Shown here: piece after piece, positions 29,646 through 34,027 of the stretch
Layout: each line of letters begins with the position of its first letter
How positions within the stretch are numbered: position 1 is the first letter of the stretch
Source: a virus
Taxonomy: Duplodnaviria > Caudoviricetes
IMG/VR virus record: IMGVR_UViG_3300032270_001162
Span: 1-34,027 of that record
Direction: 5' to 3' (one strand)
Length of the DNA: 34,027 nucleotides
Notes under the pieces: generated by a model
Database searches by the model: none
Told to the model about the DNA's origin: nothing
The model's input: only the letters and a program-made list of their open reading frames with translations
Translations under genes and position numbers: made by a program

Positions 29646-29674
29646 ATCATACATCATTATATAGTGTTTGTCAA
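29646..29674 (-). promoter_or_regulatory. Sigma70-type promoter TTGACA-N17-TATGAT
   Basis: Consensus -35 box, 17-nt spacer and a 5/6 -10 box, upstream of the glycosyltransferase-like gene. Confidence 0.85.
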
Positions 29675-29844
29675 TCTTCACGTTCTGTGAGAATTACATC
29701 ATTTCCTTCGACTTTAAAACTAATCTCGGTATCTTCATACCATGAGAGTTCGTTTGCAATACTCTCTGGAATAATCACATAATAGTCTCCAGTAATTGGA
29801 TCGACCTGTACGGACTCAAAAATTTCCCCGGAATTTTTCTTCAT
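29671..29844 (-). CDS. AbrB/MazE-like small DNA-binding protein (57 aa)
   Basis: Manual translation MKKNSGEIFESVQVDPITGDYYVIIPESIANELSWYEDTEISFKVEGNDVILTERED. VIIP..IA..L.W.....I.F.V....VIL fits the swapped-hairpin pattern. Confidence 0.65.
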   Translation of the reverse strand: MKKNSGEIFESVQVDPITGDYYVIIPESIANELSWYEDTEISFKVEGNDVILTERED

Positions 29845-30526: not shown

Positions 30527-30772
30527 TCAGTGGAAGGAATCGTAGGAGGTTTGAGGTGTTGGATCAAACCCATCGATTGCGACATTAACCGCAGCGGATG
30601 GTGACAATCCCTCTAGGTAGGATTCCAGCAGGGAATCTAATGCCCAACCGGCATCTGGGATTCCCAGTGCCCAGATCCCCATAGGGTGGTCCAGTTGGTA
30701 GGCATGGGCGGCATCCCACCAAGCACAGAAAGCGGGAGAGTCGAAGCAATTATCAGCGGTGAGAGCAGGCAT
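30527..30772 (-). CDS. Hypothetical acidic protein (81 aa; start revised to ATG 30772)
   Basis: MPALTADNCF... follows the CA-rich leader AAACACACCACTGAC and a TAGGAT -10 box. Confidence 0.7.
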   Translation of the reverse strand: MPALTADNCFDSPAFCAWWDAAHAYQLDHPMGIWALGIPDAGWALDSLLESYLEGLSPSAAVNVAIDGFDPTPQTSYDSFH

Positions 30773-30874
30773 GTCAGTGGTGTGTTTGACCCCCAAATCC
30801 TACATCACCGGGAACCCTGACGGAGGGTTCAAACCTTAAGAGAATCTGGAGAGTCTCAGTTACTATAAAGAACT

Positions 30875-30918
30875 AAAACAACACTGAATAATAACAATTA
30901 AACAACACTGAATAATAA
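30875..30918. repeat. 19-bp direct repeat x2
   Basis: AAACAACACTGAATAATAA at 30875 and 30900. Confidence 0.8.
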
Positions 30919-30937
30919 GAATAATAAACTCCAAAAC

Positions 30938-31080
30938 TATAAAGAATTAGACAGGACTGAATGTAAAGAATAAACCACACCACTGACAATAAGTTACATT
31001 CAATCCTGAGTAATTCTTTATAATCAAGAAAAAGTATAAAGAATTAAGAACTAGGTGTGATTCATTCTTAATTCTTTATA
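30938..31080. repeat. Two adjacent long inverted repeats that share TATAAAGAATTA arms
   Basis: Imperfect 29-bp arms at 30938-30966 and 30994-31022; perfect 16-bp arms at 31035-31050 and 31065-31080. Confidence 0.85.
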
Positions 31081-31089
31081 TCTTACACT

Positions 31090-31248
31090 TCATACTTGTT
31101 CTTCATTCATTACACTATGCATGTGCATCTTATTAATAATAGTGTGACATGTATCCGCCACGCTATCATCATCTGTGCATTGCATGTGCATAACTAACGC
31201 ATCATAGATTGCGTCCTGTTCGTGTGAATTGAGTGCGAGCATGTTCAT
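31090..31248 (-). CDS. Small hypothetical protein (52 aa)
   Basis: Manual translation MNMLALNSHEQDAIYDALVMHMQCTDDDSVADTCHTIINKMHMHSVMNEEQV; CA-rich leader; same strand as its neighbours. Confidence 0.55.
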   Translation of the reverse strand: MNMLALNSHEQDAIYDALVMHMQCTDDDSVADTCHTIINKMHMHSVMNEEQV

Positions 31249-31308
31249 AACTGCGAATGCCTGTTAGTGTGTGTGAGAATGTGTGCAGATGCCTGCGAAT
31301 GCCTGTTA

Positions 31309-31398
31309 ATGTGTGCGCATCTCGACGAGTTATGTGTGCGCATCTCGACGAGTTATGTGTGCGCATCTCGACGAGTTATGTGTGCGCATCTCGACGAG
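31309..31398. repeat. 23-bp tandem repeat x4 (ATGTGTGCGCATCTCGACGAGTT)
   Basis: Three perfect copies plus a 21-bp fourth, with no spacers. Confidence 0.95.
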
Positions 31399-31401
31399 AT
31401 T

Positions 31402-31569
31402 TTAATAATGATGCCGACTCATTGTACAGTTGGGATCATTGTACCAATCAGAATCCTCATAAGATTCTGTTACTTTAGGTGCCATCCGAAGCATTAGATC
31501 ATCGGATAATTTGCACATTCCAGTTGTAACTAACTGGAGGATTTCATCGGGTGTTAGAAAGGTTTCCAT
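31402..31569 (-). CDS. Small hypothetical protein (55 aa)
   Basis: Manual translation METFLTPDEILQLVTTGMCKLSDDLMLRMAPKVTESYEDSDWYNDPNCTMSRHHY; starts 2 nt after the upstream stop. Confidence 0.7.
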   Translation of the reverse strand: METFLTPDEILQLVTTGMCKLSDDLMLRMAPKVTESYEDSDWYNDPNCTMSRHHY

Positions 31570-31571
31570 GA

Positions 31572-31823
31572 TCAGATCATCTCAATTAGGTGGAGAATAG
31601 ATGTAACTTGAACCGGTGTTTGGTAGGTTAAAGGATCCTCCATCATAATACCACCGGGGCGAATTACCATAACCTCAAATGTATCCTGGTCGATGATACC
31701 GTAGAGACCGGAATCTTCAGGACCCGATACAACTGAGACTGCCCAACCATTGGGGAAAGTGTGACGTGCCTTAGTGCCACCCTTGATAGCGTGATCTGAG
31801 AAAGTGAGAGAGGAGAAGTTCAT
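31572..31823 (-). CDS. Conserved phage hypothetical protein (83 aa)
   Basis: The FPNGWAVSVV...GLYG...FEV pattern is seen in small early phage proteins; has its own promoter and CA-rich leader. Confidence 0.8.
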   Translation of the reverse strand: MNFSSLTFSDHAIKGGTKARHTFPNGWAVSVVSGPEDSGLYGIIDQDTFEVMVIRPGGIMMEDPLTYQTPVQVTSILHLIEMI

Positions 31824-31893
31824 CGGAGCGGTGTGGTGTGAACTGAGAGAATCCTAGCATGGATTGGGGGGCATCTGCGCCCCCCTGGGAGAA

Positions 31894-32079
31894 TCAATAA
31901 CCTAACCAGGTTAGCAGTTCGCCAGTATCGACGCGGAAGGGTTTGGTTCCGTATTCTGTGCAGAAGTCTTCCCAGACCCCATGATCCTTAGCAGTCTGGC
32001 AAGCAGTAGACCAGCGGATGGTTCCGTTGTTTGGATCGGTGCAGGCGCTGAGCAGTTCGGGGAAAGTGGAGGATGCCAT
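31894..32079 (-). CDS. Small hypothetical protein (61 aa; start revised to ATG 32079)
   Basis: MASSTFPELL...VDTGELLTWLGY. The track's start at 32118 lies inside the promoter. Confidence 0.75.
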   Translation of the reverse strand: MASSTFPELLSACTDPNNGTIRWSTACQTAKDHGVWEDFCTEYGTKPFRVDTGELLTWLGY

Positions 32080-32105
32080 GGGGTGGTGTGGTTTGAACTG
32101 ATGCC

Positions 32106-32134
32106 AGTATGGTCCCAAACGGTGCCCAGGTCAA
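32106..32134 (-). promoter_or_regulatory. Sigma70-type early promoter TTGACC-N17-CATACT
   Basis: Correct spacing; followed by a leader ending AAACCACACCACCCC-ATG. Confidence 0.7.
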
Positions 32135-32290
32135 CCCTCCAAACCATAAGCATTGGTGATCAATCAAAGGGTTGCCAAGGGGTCCGGGTCCCGTGCTAGG
32201 ATGAAGGCAGAATCTATTTTTTGGGATGTGCCAATTTTTGAGGTGTCCACTGCTGGGCGATTATGGGTCCGGCGGTGCTGTAGGATAAGG

Positions 32291-32371
32291 GGACAATCAG
32301 CAAAGACAGCAGTGGGGTAACTGCTTGATCAATCCATCGCCACCGAACCTGCGCTCAAATAATTGTAACAA
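32291..32371 (+). ncRNA. Candidate structured small RNA, copy 1
   Basis: 65/81 ungapped identity to 33796-33876; stem AGCAGT/ACTGCT with loop GGGGTA; TAGGAT -10-like box at 32281-32286. Confidence 0.6.
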
Positions 32372-32382
32372 ATGAGTATAAA

Positions 32383-32408
32383 GAAAGGGGGCGGATTGTG
32401 CCCCCTTA
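32383..32408 (-). terminator. Rho-independent terminator
   Basis: G/C-run stem-loop (loop CAATC) followed by TTTCTTT on the minus strand, just after the stop at 32417. Confidence 0.75.
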
Positions 32409-32416
32409 AAGTATAC

Positions 32417-33097
32417 TCAACCGATGATTGCGTTCACCTTTGCTTTCTTAGGAGAATGTGCAGGGAATGCTATCACAAACTCACGCTTTGCTAATTGACA
32501 CAAACCGCAGGTGGCGCATGTTACCTTACCTGGAAAAAGTGCAGCGGGGCAGGTAACAACTTTCCGACCGTTAGTTGTTGTAAAGAACCGGCGGGATTCT
32601 TCAGAGTTAACAACTGCCATAGCGGGGATGTTATGCTCAGTCATCACTTTGTCCGCTTCGTCTACACTTTCTGTAGATGCGTTAACAGTAAACCCTAGGG
32701 CGTTACTATTCTGCAGGCAAATAACATTGTGATCGTTCAGAATGTGATGCGAATAGGTGAAACCTTTCCGCCCTTTGTTTGCACTAATTAACTGCTTGAG
32801 TTGAATATAATCAATGTTTCCGTCATTGTGAGGCAAATCGCCAGCAGTATTGTGGCGCCAAAGTACACCAAGGGGAACAATCTTGCGGAGTTGTAACAGA
32901 AACTCACTCCATGAAATACCTTTAGTTCCCTTGTTAAGTTGTGCCCACTGCATCCATTCTCTACCTTGTTTGGCATAGCATTCGCCACCAATAAAAGGGC
33001 AGGTTGGGGGGCAGGATGTGCCATCGGTGCGAGTGGTCGTGATGGGTCCGGTTTTGCCGTTGCCAGAGCGAGCGGTGATGGTGAGAGAGTAAACCAT
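32417..33097 (-). CDS. Cys-rich putative Fe-S protein (GP88/DUF7227-like, radical-SAM-like motif)
   Basis: N.KTG, SCPPTCPFIGGECYA (CX3CX6C), RHNTAGD, GFTYSH, NASTES and C-terminal CPA...TCATCGLC...FPAH. Confidence 0.7.
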   Translation of the reverse strand: MVYSLTITARSGNGKTGPITTTRTDGTSCPPTCPFIGGECYAKQGREWMQWAQLNKGTKGISWSEFLLQLRKIVPLGVLWRHNTAGDLPHNDGNIDYIQLKQLISANKGRKGFTYSHHILNDHNVICLQNSNALGFTVNASTESVDEADKVMTEHNIPAMAVVNSEESRRFFTTTNGRKVVTCPAALFPGKVTCATCGLCQLAKREFVIAFPAHSPKKAKVNAIIG

Positions 33098-33175
33098 GAT
33101 CGGTGTCGGTGGTGGTGACCCCTAAAGAATAGCACGGATGGGGGGCAATGGTGCCCCCCGACTGATCAGCGTTGC

Positions 33176-33652
33176 TTATGCAACCCAGAGTTTCTCCACG
33201 ATCATACGCTCTACCATAGACTTGGCAAATTCGCCACAATCGTCACACTCTGTAACAGCAGCGATCTTATACTTAAGACCGCCTTTGTTGACCTTGAAAG
33301 TATAACGCCAGATTGCACTAGTAGTCAACAACAACTGGCGGCGCTTTGCCCATCCTTTTGTGGGAGCATCTACAAGGTCGTGGTATAGACGAATCATGGC
33401 GCGGTAGTCGTTACCTTGGTGGCGCAACTTGTTCAGTTCCGATACAAACAACTTGCCACCTTTAATGTGTGACTCTAAAGTTGCACCGAAAAACTCAACA
33501 AACTTAACCGACTTTTCCTCTTGATTGAGAACAACTGGCGCAACTTTTTGCACCATAACATCAGAAGCAATGCCCAACATTTGAGCAAGTTCTAACATTG
33601 TGCCTTCAACTTGGTTGCCGTTGATAACAAGTTGGATGGTGGCGTTAGTCAT
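33176..33652 (-). CDS. Hypothetical protein (158 aa; start revised to ATG 33652)
   Basis: MTNATIQLVING... follows the CA-rich leader CCCACCACCCCAGACAA. The track's extension runs through promoter and RNA-like elements. Confidence 0.7.
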   Translation of the reverse strand: MTNATIQLVINGNQVEGTMLELAQMLGIASDVMVQKVAPVVLNQEEKSVKFVEFFGATLESHIKGGKLFVSELNKLRHQGNDYRAMIRLYHDLVDAPTKGWAKRRQLLLTTSAIWRYTFKVNKGGLKYKIAAVTECDDCGEFAKSMVERMIVEKLWVA

Positions 33653-33795
33653 TTGTCTGGGGTGGTGGGCGGCGTCAGTGGTGCGCCGTTGAATGAATGA
33701 TGCCACACCGGAACCGACCAGATCCAGCGACCTTGTGCCAGTGGTGAAACTGGTTTTTGCTGGCGGTTTTTGATCGGTGCCGTGGTATCCTAATA

Positions 33796-33876
33796 GGACA
33801 ACCAGCACCAACGGCAGAAGGGTATCTGCCTGATCAATACATCGCCACCGCCCCTGCCATAAAATAATTATAACAA
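33796..33876 (+). ncRNA. Candidate structured small RNA, copy 2
   Basis: Stem GGCAGA/TCTGCC with loop AGGGTA, compensatory relative to copy 1; TGGTATCCT extended -10-like box upstream. Confidence 0.6.
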
Positions 33877-33882
33877 TACATT

Positions 33883-34006
33883 AAGAAAAGTGGACCAGGC
33901 ACCACCCCGATCCACAGCAACCCACTCACCTATGCTAGAATTATCTGTTGTCTTGCTCGCAGGGTGACTTTAACATTCAGCGACGGCAAACCCCTTCCGT
34001 CTTTAT
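33883..34006 (-). ncRNA. Candidate ~120-nt small RNA with its own promoter and terminator
   Basis: Extended -10 TGGTACAAT (34013-34021); stems GACGG/CCGTC and TCACC/GGTGA; 10-bp terminator stem with loop GTGGTG followed by TTTTCTT; no convincing ORF. Confidence 0.55.
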
Positions 34007-34027
34007 CTTATAATTGTACCATCCAAT

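Follow-up and report, generated by a model that had tools for sequence, protein, structure and literature searches.

Several structured non-coding elements of T4-like cyanophages are known from Rfam or the literature, among them wcaG, manA and PhotoRC. A psbA-linked antisense RNA of phage S-PM2 is mentioned by Fremin et al. (2023), whose accessible text reports 8,495 unnamed candidate structured RNAs from IMG/VR with a mean length of 67 nt (PMC10690425).

Two parts make up a replication origin of phage T4, a promoter and an AT-rich unwinding element; the transcript, held in an R-loop, primes the leading strand (PMC3016281). At oriE an early promoter is accompanied by direct repeats nearby (Kreuzer and Brister 2010, PMC3016281). 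As described in the available part of that review, T4 origins have no common sequence motif and R-loops are sequence-independent. For T4-like cyanophages, the portion of the relevant paper at hand reports only a predicted origin, that of Syn9 (PMC2984593). Promoter, stem-loop and AT-rich DNA are also combined in the PeSLs (PMC2839356), which, in the accessible text, terminate with a Shine–Dalgarno sequence and the initiation codon of the gene under their control.

The unit described here occurs twice in a 34,027 nt stretch of viral DNA (IMG/VR record IMGVR_UViG_3300032270_001162, positions 1 to 34,027), referred to below as the window. It resembles wcaG, manA, PhotoRC and the S-PM2 RNA in being a structured non-coding element of T4-like cyanophages; unlike them, it has no Rfam match and is not bound to one downstream gene. 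It shares source database and length range with the candidates of Fremin et al., as far as their accessible text describes them, and the family may be among them. No description of the unit was found in the literature searched, which did not include the Syn9 transcriptome paper, and an unnamed earlier listing is possible.

Two copies in the window and their relatives

The window is a 34 kb fragment of a T4-like cyanophage, from a virus record that is 16% complete, and its minus strand holds nearly all of the long ORFs. The T4-GC102 protein encoded in it is 92% identical to the counterpart in the freshwater phage S-SRM01 (Kyanoviridae). The annotated region of S-SRM01 has the same gene order and also contains two copies of the unit, which is not mentioned in the part of the S-SRM01 paper available to us.

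The original prediction was of a duplicated plus-strand small-RNA module, and the two copies (Table 1) do align without gaps, with 65 of 81 positions identical. They match each other at an E-value of 7.9e-17 and form family D5 among the repeats of the window. The stem AGCAGT/ACTGCT of copy 1 is replaced by GGCAGA/TCTGCC in copy 2, a difference of two compensatory pairs, at positions 18/35 and 23/30 of the 81. Also as predicted, a −10-like hexamer ends 4 nt before the GGACAA of each copy, and GTGCCA lies 63 nt upstream of copy 1 and 61 nt upstream of copy 2. Both copies were said to be intergenic. This holds if the ATG at 33655 is the start of the adjacent gene; copy 2 overlaps only the TTG-extended reading of that ORF (33176–33811). 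The hairpin into which each copy was thought to run belongs instead to the opposite strand, where it forms an intrinsic terminator of minus-strand genes, and no plus-strand terminator follows either copy. A search of the window for the core pattern gives exactly two occurrences, where chance would give 0.22.

Table 1. Features of the window, and the second element at the unit locus in related sequences
Feature	Position	Strand	Remark
Unit copy 1, type A	32291..32371	+	Gapless alignment with copy 2
Unit copy 2, type A	33796..33876	+	P1 33813–33830, core 33846–33868
GTGCCA half of dyad motif, copy 1	32228..32233	+	Motif type found upstream of early promoters
GTGCCA half of dyad motif, copy 2	33735..33740	+	
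−10 hexamer TAGGAT with TG extension, copy 1	32281..32286	+	Predicted start about 32292–32293; putative promoter
−10 hexamer TATCCT with TG extension, copy 2	33786..33791	+	
Hairpin P1, copy 1	32308..32325	+	RNNGUM hexaloop, 32314–32319
Candidate short hairpin P2, copy 1	32326..32339	+	UGAU/AUCG
Rigid core, copy 1	32341..32363	+	CAC-N4-CCTGC-N7-TAAT, then AT-rich tract
Intrinsic terminator of DUF7227 gene	32385..32407	−	
Intrinsic terminator for minus-strand transcription	33890..33915	−	
226-aa gene, DUF7227 (PF23872)/phrog_2554	32417..33097	−	Convergent with unit copy 1
159-aa gene, no known family	33176..33655	−	Divergent from unit copy 2
Mostly non-coding AT-rich tract	30830..31400	.	Possible link to the unit
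Second element, DSL-LC03	L328:13700–14180		
Second element, S-SKS1	L351:7750–7970		
Second element, S-SM2	L350:17060–17170		
Second element, P-TIM68	L353:17800–18220		
Second element, S-SCSM1	L355:900–1060		
Second element, S-B43	L359:2563		
Second element, S-SRM01	L169:12719		
Second element, other loci	L214; L039		

Relatives were collected by pattern scans of IMG/VR, JGI metagenomes and GTDB and were filtered by profile and descriptor searches; the first pattern scan held one true relative among nine loci. The collection comprises 256 distinct units, which fall into 146 clusters when grouped at 90% identity; these totals include four rows (three of type C and one of type B) later dropped as noise. 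L093 and, before alignment A2, three of 80 rows (L097, L044 and the type B copy of L038) were also dropped. In JGI, 8 of 64 parts were covered, and about 1,100 matching stretches are estimated; of the 107 distinct matches found, 66 are of type A or B and 40 are unclassified, most of the latter being due to chance. Together, about 250 distinct units make up a large family that is undescribed and belongs to the T4-like cyanophages (Kyanoviridae). This bears out the expectation of a multi-copy, promoter-bearing non-coding family outside Rfam with a covarying plus-strand hairpin. Rfam gave no match in the window, and the six weak matches at E≤10 in 30700–34027 do not fall on the copies; no Rfam 15 family exceeds its gathering threshold on them.

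Among 14 cultured Kyanoviridae, five carry the unit: S-SRM01 (two copies), DSL-LC03 (one), B23 (four), P-SSM2 (one; NC_006883.2 66483–66557, minus strand) and S-SSM7 (one). It was not found in S-SM2, S-SKS1, S-T4, P-TIM68, S-SCSM1, ACG-2014f, Sf-CH8, S-CAM9 or S-B43, negatives that are weak because the genome-wide model R1 missed the S-SSM7 copy; the core profile covered about 20 kb at the matching locus. Genomes hold one to five copies, up to five of them within 5 kb, and the subtypes described below are mixed in one genome. Copies are occasionally reversed, with back-to-back pairs in L372/L393, L395/L396 and L368; in L211 (2863–2998), a reversed copy faces a forward copy 135 nt away.

The exact-pattern scan of GTDB gave 31 loci, four of which are true units (L176, L187, L196 and L200), all in assemblies titled as non-cyanobacteria. 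One of these four assemblies (G006) encodes a gp25 homologue at 64% identity, and the units are therefore likely to be mis-binned cyanophage DNA. No host homologue of the unit is present among the 31 matches.

Hairpin, core and subtypes

In 77 type A sequences, hairpin P1 is paired in 385 of 385 cells and all five pairs show compensatory change; the covariation score is 0.90, compared with 0.24 in shuffled alignments and at most 0.15 when the pairing is slid. G-U pairs occupy 38 cells, which would be A-C on the opposite strand, so it is the plus strand that folds. The covariation predicted for further homologues is thus found for the main hairpin, and mutual information singles out the P1 pairs only (152 sequences, 73 effective). 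The P1 loop has the consensus R-N-N-G-U-M. The other pairings that had been suggested fare differently. A switch between GCAG and CUGC is paired in 76.9%, which is under the shuffled mean, with no compensatory change. The loop GGU can pair with ACY in 97%, with two of the three pairs invariant and again none compensatory; pairing of the loop with CCU is possible and likewise shows no compensatory change. The short hairpin P2 can form in 173 of 204 type A units, has no demonstrated covariation and is absent from the smallest marine members, which have one 5-bp stem.

ViennaRNA predicts P1 with a probability above 0.5 in 172–190 of 206 RNAs that end before CCU and in 44 of 206 whole units; the program is blind to pseudoknots, which may explain the low stability of P1 in the whole units.

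The hairpin had been taken as the defining part of the module. The relatives show otherwise: 33 have a different hairpin and 13 have none, and all keep the 3′ core. Type A units (n=206) have the hexaloop and UCG, type B units (n=33) a 4-bp stem with another loop, and type C units (n=13) no hairpin, the core beginning at about +2 behind the −10 box. Most type C units have a full TTGACA-17-TAnnnT promoter with a near-consensus −35 box. Common to all three is a YAC-N4-CCTGC-N7-TAWT core followed by an A-rich or AT-rich tract. The core is a fixed 23-base element (span 23–27 bp) with fixed spacing and no covarying partner; its conservation is inflated by the search patterns, and CCTGC was intact in 16 of 24 units found with a pattern that omitted it. 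AT content is 0.83 and 0.78 in the first and second 10 nt downstream of the core, compared with 0.33–0.68 upstream; after those 20 nt it falls to about 0.6, and the tail of the opposite-strand terminator explains part of the AT-richness. Direct repeats of the GTTACA type, presumably reminiscent of RpaB (HLR1) sites, follow immediately after TAAT in L349 (S-SSM7), L211, L304 and L084.

Covariation of this RNA type is what would be expected of a trans-acting early small RNA, encoded more than once, whose single-stranded core and AU-rich tail would titrate an RNA-binding protein of host or phage, with the hairpin protecting the 5′ end and a ribonuclease forming the 3′ end. The AAAUAAU end is predicted to be unpaired (0.72–0.93), and in 28 of 34 cases the type B loop is able to pair with positions 3–5 of the core, with a score above 99.5% of shuffles if kinship is ignored. 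Multiple copies, the patchy distribution among cultured phages and a setting among small early genes also agree with such a decoy. Although the main rival of the explanation preferred below, it is somewhat unlikely: an own-strand terminator lies within 150 nt in 44 of 244 units and is missing in the other 200 (162 of the 244 have one on the opposite strand), type C units dispense with the hairpin, the rigid N4 and N7 spacers would be unusual for a flexible RNA site, and the 31 GTDB matches contain no host homologue.

The start of the type C core at about +2 could also be read as the product of a self-cleaving or processing module, in which the 5′ parts of types A and B are cut off to expose a type C-like 5′ end. 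The invariant unpaired bases in the loop and in UCG would suit a ribozyme. However, no Rfam ribozyme covariance model matches at E-values up to 10, the modules of types A and B fold differently, and the smallest members have a single 5-bp stem; the ribozyme proposed earlier thus finds no support and is highly improbable. Nor is there support for mimicry of an antitoxin. Type III antitoxins are head-to-tail arrays of pseudoknot repeats of about 36 nt, whereas copies of the unit lie apart from one another, have separate promoter-like boxes and show no covarying pseudoknot. Possible likenesses to rRNA helices, tRNA arms, the boxA of rRNA operons, a DnaG primase triplet and RegA sites were also considered.

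Translation of the core as a minigene, in which CCTGCN would be followed by a start-like triplet, AAA and a stop codon, is scarcely credible. The triplet after CCTGCN is ATG in 33, TTG in 15 and GTG in one of 186 units, and TAA or TAG stands two codons further on in 144 of the 186. Against this, the commonest triplet is ATA (76 of 186), many units have no start at all, copy 1 of the window has CTC, and the invariant positions disregard codon wobble.

Promoter, orientation and genomic setting

TAnnnT is found at the expected place in 226 of 231 type A and B units, compared with 87 after shuffling and with 24 and 39 in control windows, so that, as far as sequence can tell, a promoter is directed into the element as in a T4-type R-loop origin. 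A dyad-type motif lies 40–130 nt upstream in 190 of the 231, compared with 81 of 224 in a downstream control window. One metatranscriptome contig spans copy 2 and none spans copy 1; the contigs come from two runs with small shares (0.12 and 0.05), and neither strand nor level is readable from them.

Where homology-supported genes lie within 1.5 kb, 189 of 191 units face against their neighbours. Homology was used because plain ORF calling is too noisy for orientation (81 of 105 opposite on each side). A unit placed directly behind a promoter, directed against genes and lacking a terminator might act in cis, as a pause or antitermination signal controlling antisense transcription that enters the early genes or heads for the DnaA module described below. 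HK022 put and lambda nut offer a comparison for such promoter-proximal antitermination signals. P1 is predicted to be favoured on nascent RNA, and the unit lies upstream of the DnaA module on the same strand. Type C, however, has no structured RNA, no sense gene downstream would benefit, and copies stand before each of several genes, some of them reversed; control in cis is therefore distinctly unlikely.

The sigma-70-like promoter and intergenic stem-loop by which PeSLs are recognized are both present in the unit. Further likenesses to PeSLs, as the available parts of the sources describe them, are the repetition between genes, the AT-rich DNA and the variable region of small genes (PMC2839356, PMC4122927, PMC4503421). 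Repeated promoter/stem-loop units of this kind could serve as a recombination cassette that shuffles small early genes; every unit abuts a terminator, and the neighbours change. Yet PeSLs, in the accessible text, face into the gene they drive, whereas the unit almost always faces away and has a sequence-specific core. A single copy is present in P-SSM2, S-SSM7 and DSL-LC03, and recombination would favour identity over compensatory change. A PeSL-like cassette is thus very unlikely.

In the five cultured unit-bearing phages, small genes lacking annotation surround the units, which lie 3–9 kb upstream of the T4-GC102 gene; that gene precedes gp25–gp6. The 159-aa gene next to copy 2 has no PHROG, Pfam or Atlas match. 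At the edge of the early region, a 57-aa gene (29671–29844, minus strand) has a weak MazE/AbrB-type match (E 0.006, below the cut-off).

The AT-rich tract of the window contains a 29-bp inverted repeat (30938–31022) and a perfect 23-nt tandem repeat of 3.9 copies (31309–31398). A similar tract, read by eye, lies directly downstream of type B or C units in L393, L394, L395, L398 and L399. The repeat at 30938–31022 and another at 31033–31082 are two long AT-rich inverted repeats; the former has CCACACCAC in its loop, on the plus strand, a motif that also stands ahead of start codons of early genes on the minus strand of the window. S-SRM01, P-SSM2 and S-SKS1 have words of the CTCGACGAG type, related to the tandem repeat, at the corresponding locus.

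A second backward element (Table 1) is found at the unit locus, and also at this locus in five phages that lack the unit. It has a near-consensus promoter, a conserved tail and a tract reaching 70–93% AT. It often carries tandem repeats and arrays of boxes that we take to be DnaA boxes; exact copies number seven in DSL-LC03, three in S-SKS1 (together with 21-nt repeats), two in S-SM2 and two in P-TIM68. On sequence grounds it is a candidate origin or DnaA sink. There are 29 matches to it, 19 of them in unit-bearing loci. A unit lies 0.3–2.4 kb upstream on the same strand in 15 of the 19 (the case of L404 resting on noise rows), downstream in two and on the other strand in two. The DNA downstream of units (438 kb) holds 55 exact DnaA boxes and the upstream DNA (415 kb) three, counts in which loci are re-used; the genome-wide rate in the complete genome G001 is 10 per 236 kb. 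A box is present for nine of 115 units having 2 kb of downstream DNA, and the window has none. In S-CAM9 (L358, minus strand, about 4.3 kb from the end), a backward near-consensus promoter leads into a long hairpin whose loop contains GGTGTGGTGGACC and which seems to us to recall the wcaG RNA motif.

A possible transcription-primed replication start

The explanation we prefer, with a probability of about 0.38, is that the units belong to a replication-origin region, in which they would be driven by their promoters and work through a primer RNA or R-loop, like T4 oriE and oriF. Host RNA polymerase would fire at the early promoter of the unit, and a short RNA would remain bound to the DNA where the fixed core and AT-rich tract lie. 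The retained RNA would then prime phage DNA synthesis as at oriE and oriF. The 5′ hairpin would be an exchangeable module that folds on the nascent RNA and keeps its G-rich 5′ part off the C-rich core.

The promoter-like box, hairpin, rigid core and AT-rich tract are observed, as are orientation and location; we infer transcription of the unit, stalling or an RNA–DNA hybrid at the core, and priming. The 23–27 bp span of the core fits a DNA site read by polymerase or primase, and type A units have 11 nt between the end of the P2 arm and the U of CCU|G. P1 covaries perfectly though it is predicted to be stable mainly before CCU, which fits a core held in the polymerase or in a hybrid. As the hairpin-less type C keeps both promoter and core, these appear to matter more than the fold. 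The 5′ module confers a weak advantage in hybrid stability, one that 10% of background windows equal.

With promoter and core maintained without the fold, no terminator of its own, rigid spacing and an origin-like locus, the unit fits the T4 origin plan better than that of a free small RNA. The back-to-back pairs in several contigs also count in favour of an origin, as does the second backward element at this locus. As characterized in the available part of the review, oriE, oriF (uvsY) and oriG likewise have a geneless promoter and AT-rich DNA, which in the unit would be a candidate unwinding element, and occur several to a genome, and oriE shares with the unit an early-type promoter with direct repeats nearby (PMC3016281). 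According to the same text, oriE, F and G lie at strand switches with skew shifts and oriA and C do not; the unit has no skew switch. In G001, GC skew tracks the coding strand and does not change lastingly where the unit lies, one 5-kb bin before it being reversed. Further differences from the T4 origins are the conserved core, the covarying hairpin, the clustering at one locus and, in some relatives, the host DnaA boxes nearby.

Several points argue against an origin. The core of the unit is conserved, whereas no motif is common to the T4 origins and their R-loops do not depend on sequence; nine of 14 cultured relatives gave no unit when searched; and up to five copies stand within 5 kb. The origin may lie in the DnaA module itself, with the unit as a bystander. 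Because the skew test failed and the defining tests are experimental, we do not class the unit as a T4-type origin, and infer at best a likeness. An elaboration of the origin reading, which we regard as doubtful, is replication from a cluster of primer-RNA genes beside a module bound by host DnaA, in which the sequence-specific core would bring host RNA polymerase to a stop at one fixed base and pass the 3′ end of the RNA on to the phage replisome, a step tuned by the exchangeable 5′ hairpins.

T4-like cyanophages are major agents of mortality in oceans and lakes, and the exact coordinates of the unit in P-SSM2, S-SSM7 and S-SRM01 make both the origin and the small-RNA questions directly testable. 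If the unit specifies a decoy RNA, it would be a conserved early host-takeover RNA common to phages of Prochlorococcus and of freshwater Synechococcus. An origin defined by a motif and a structured RNA, if true, would be of a kind not described in T4-like phages.
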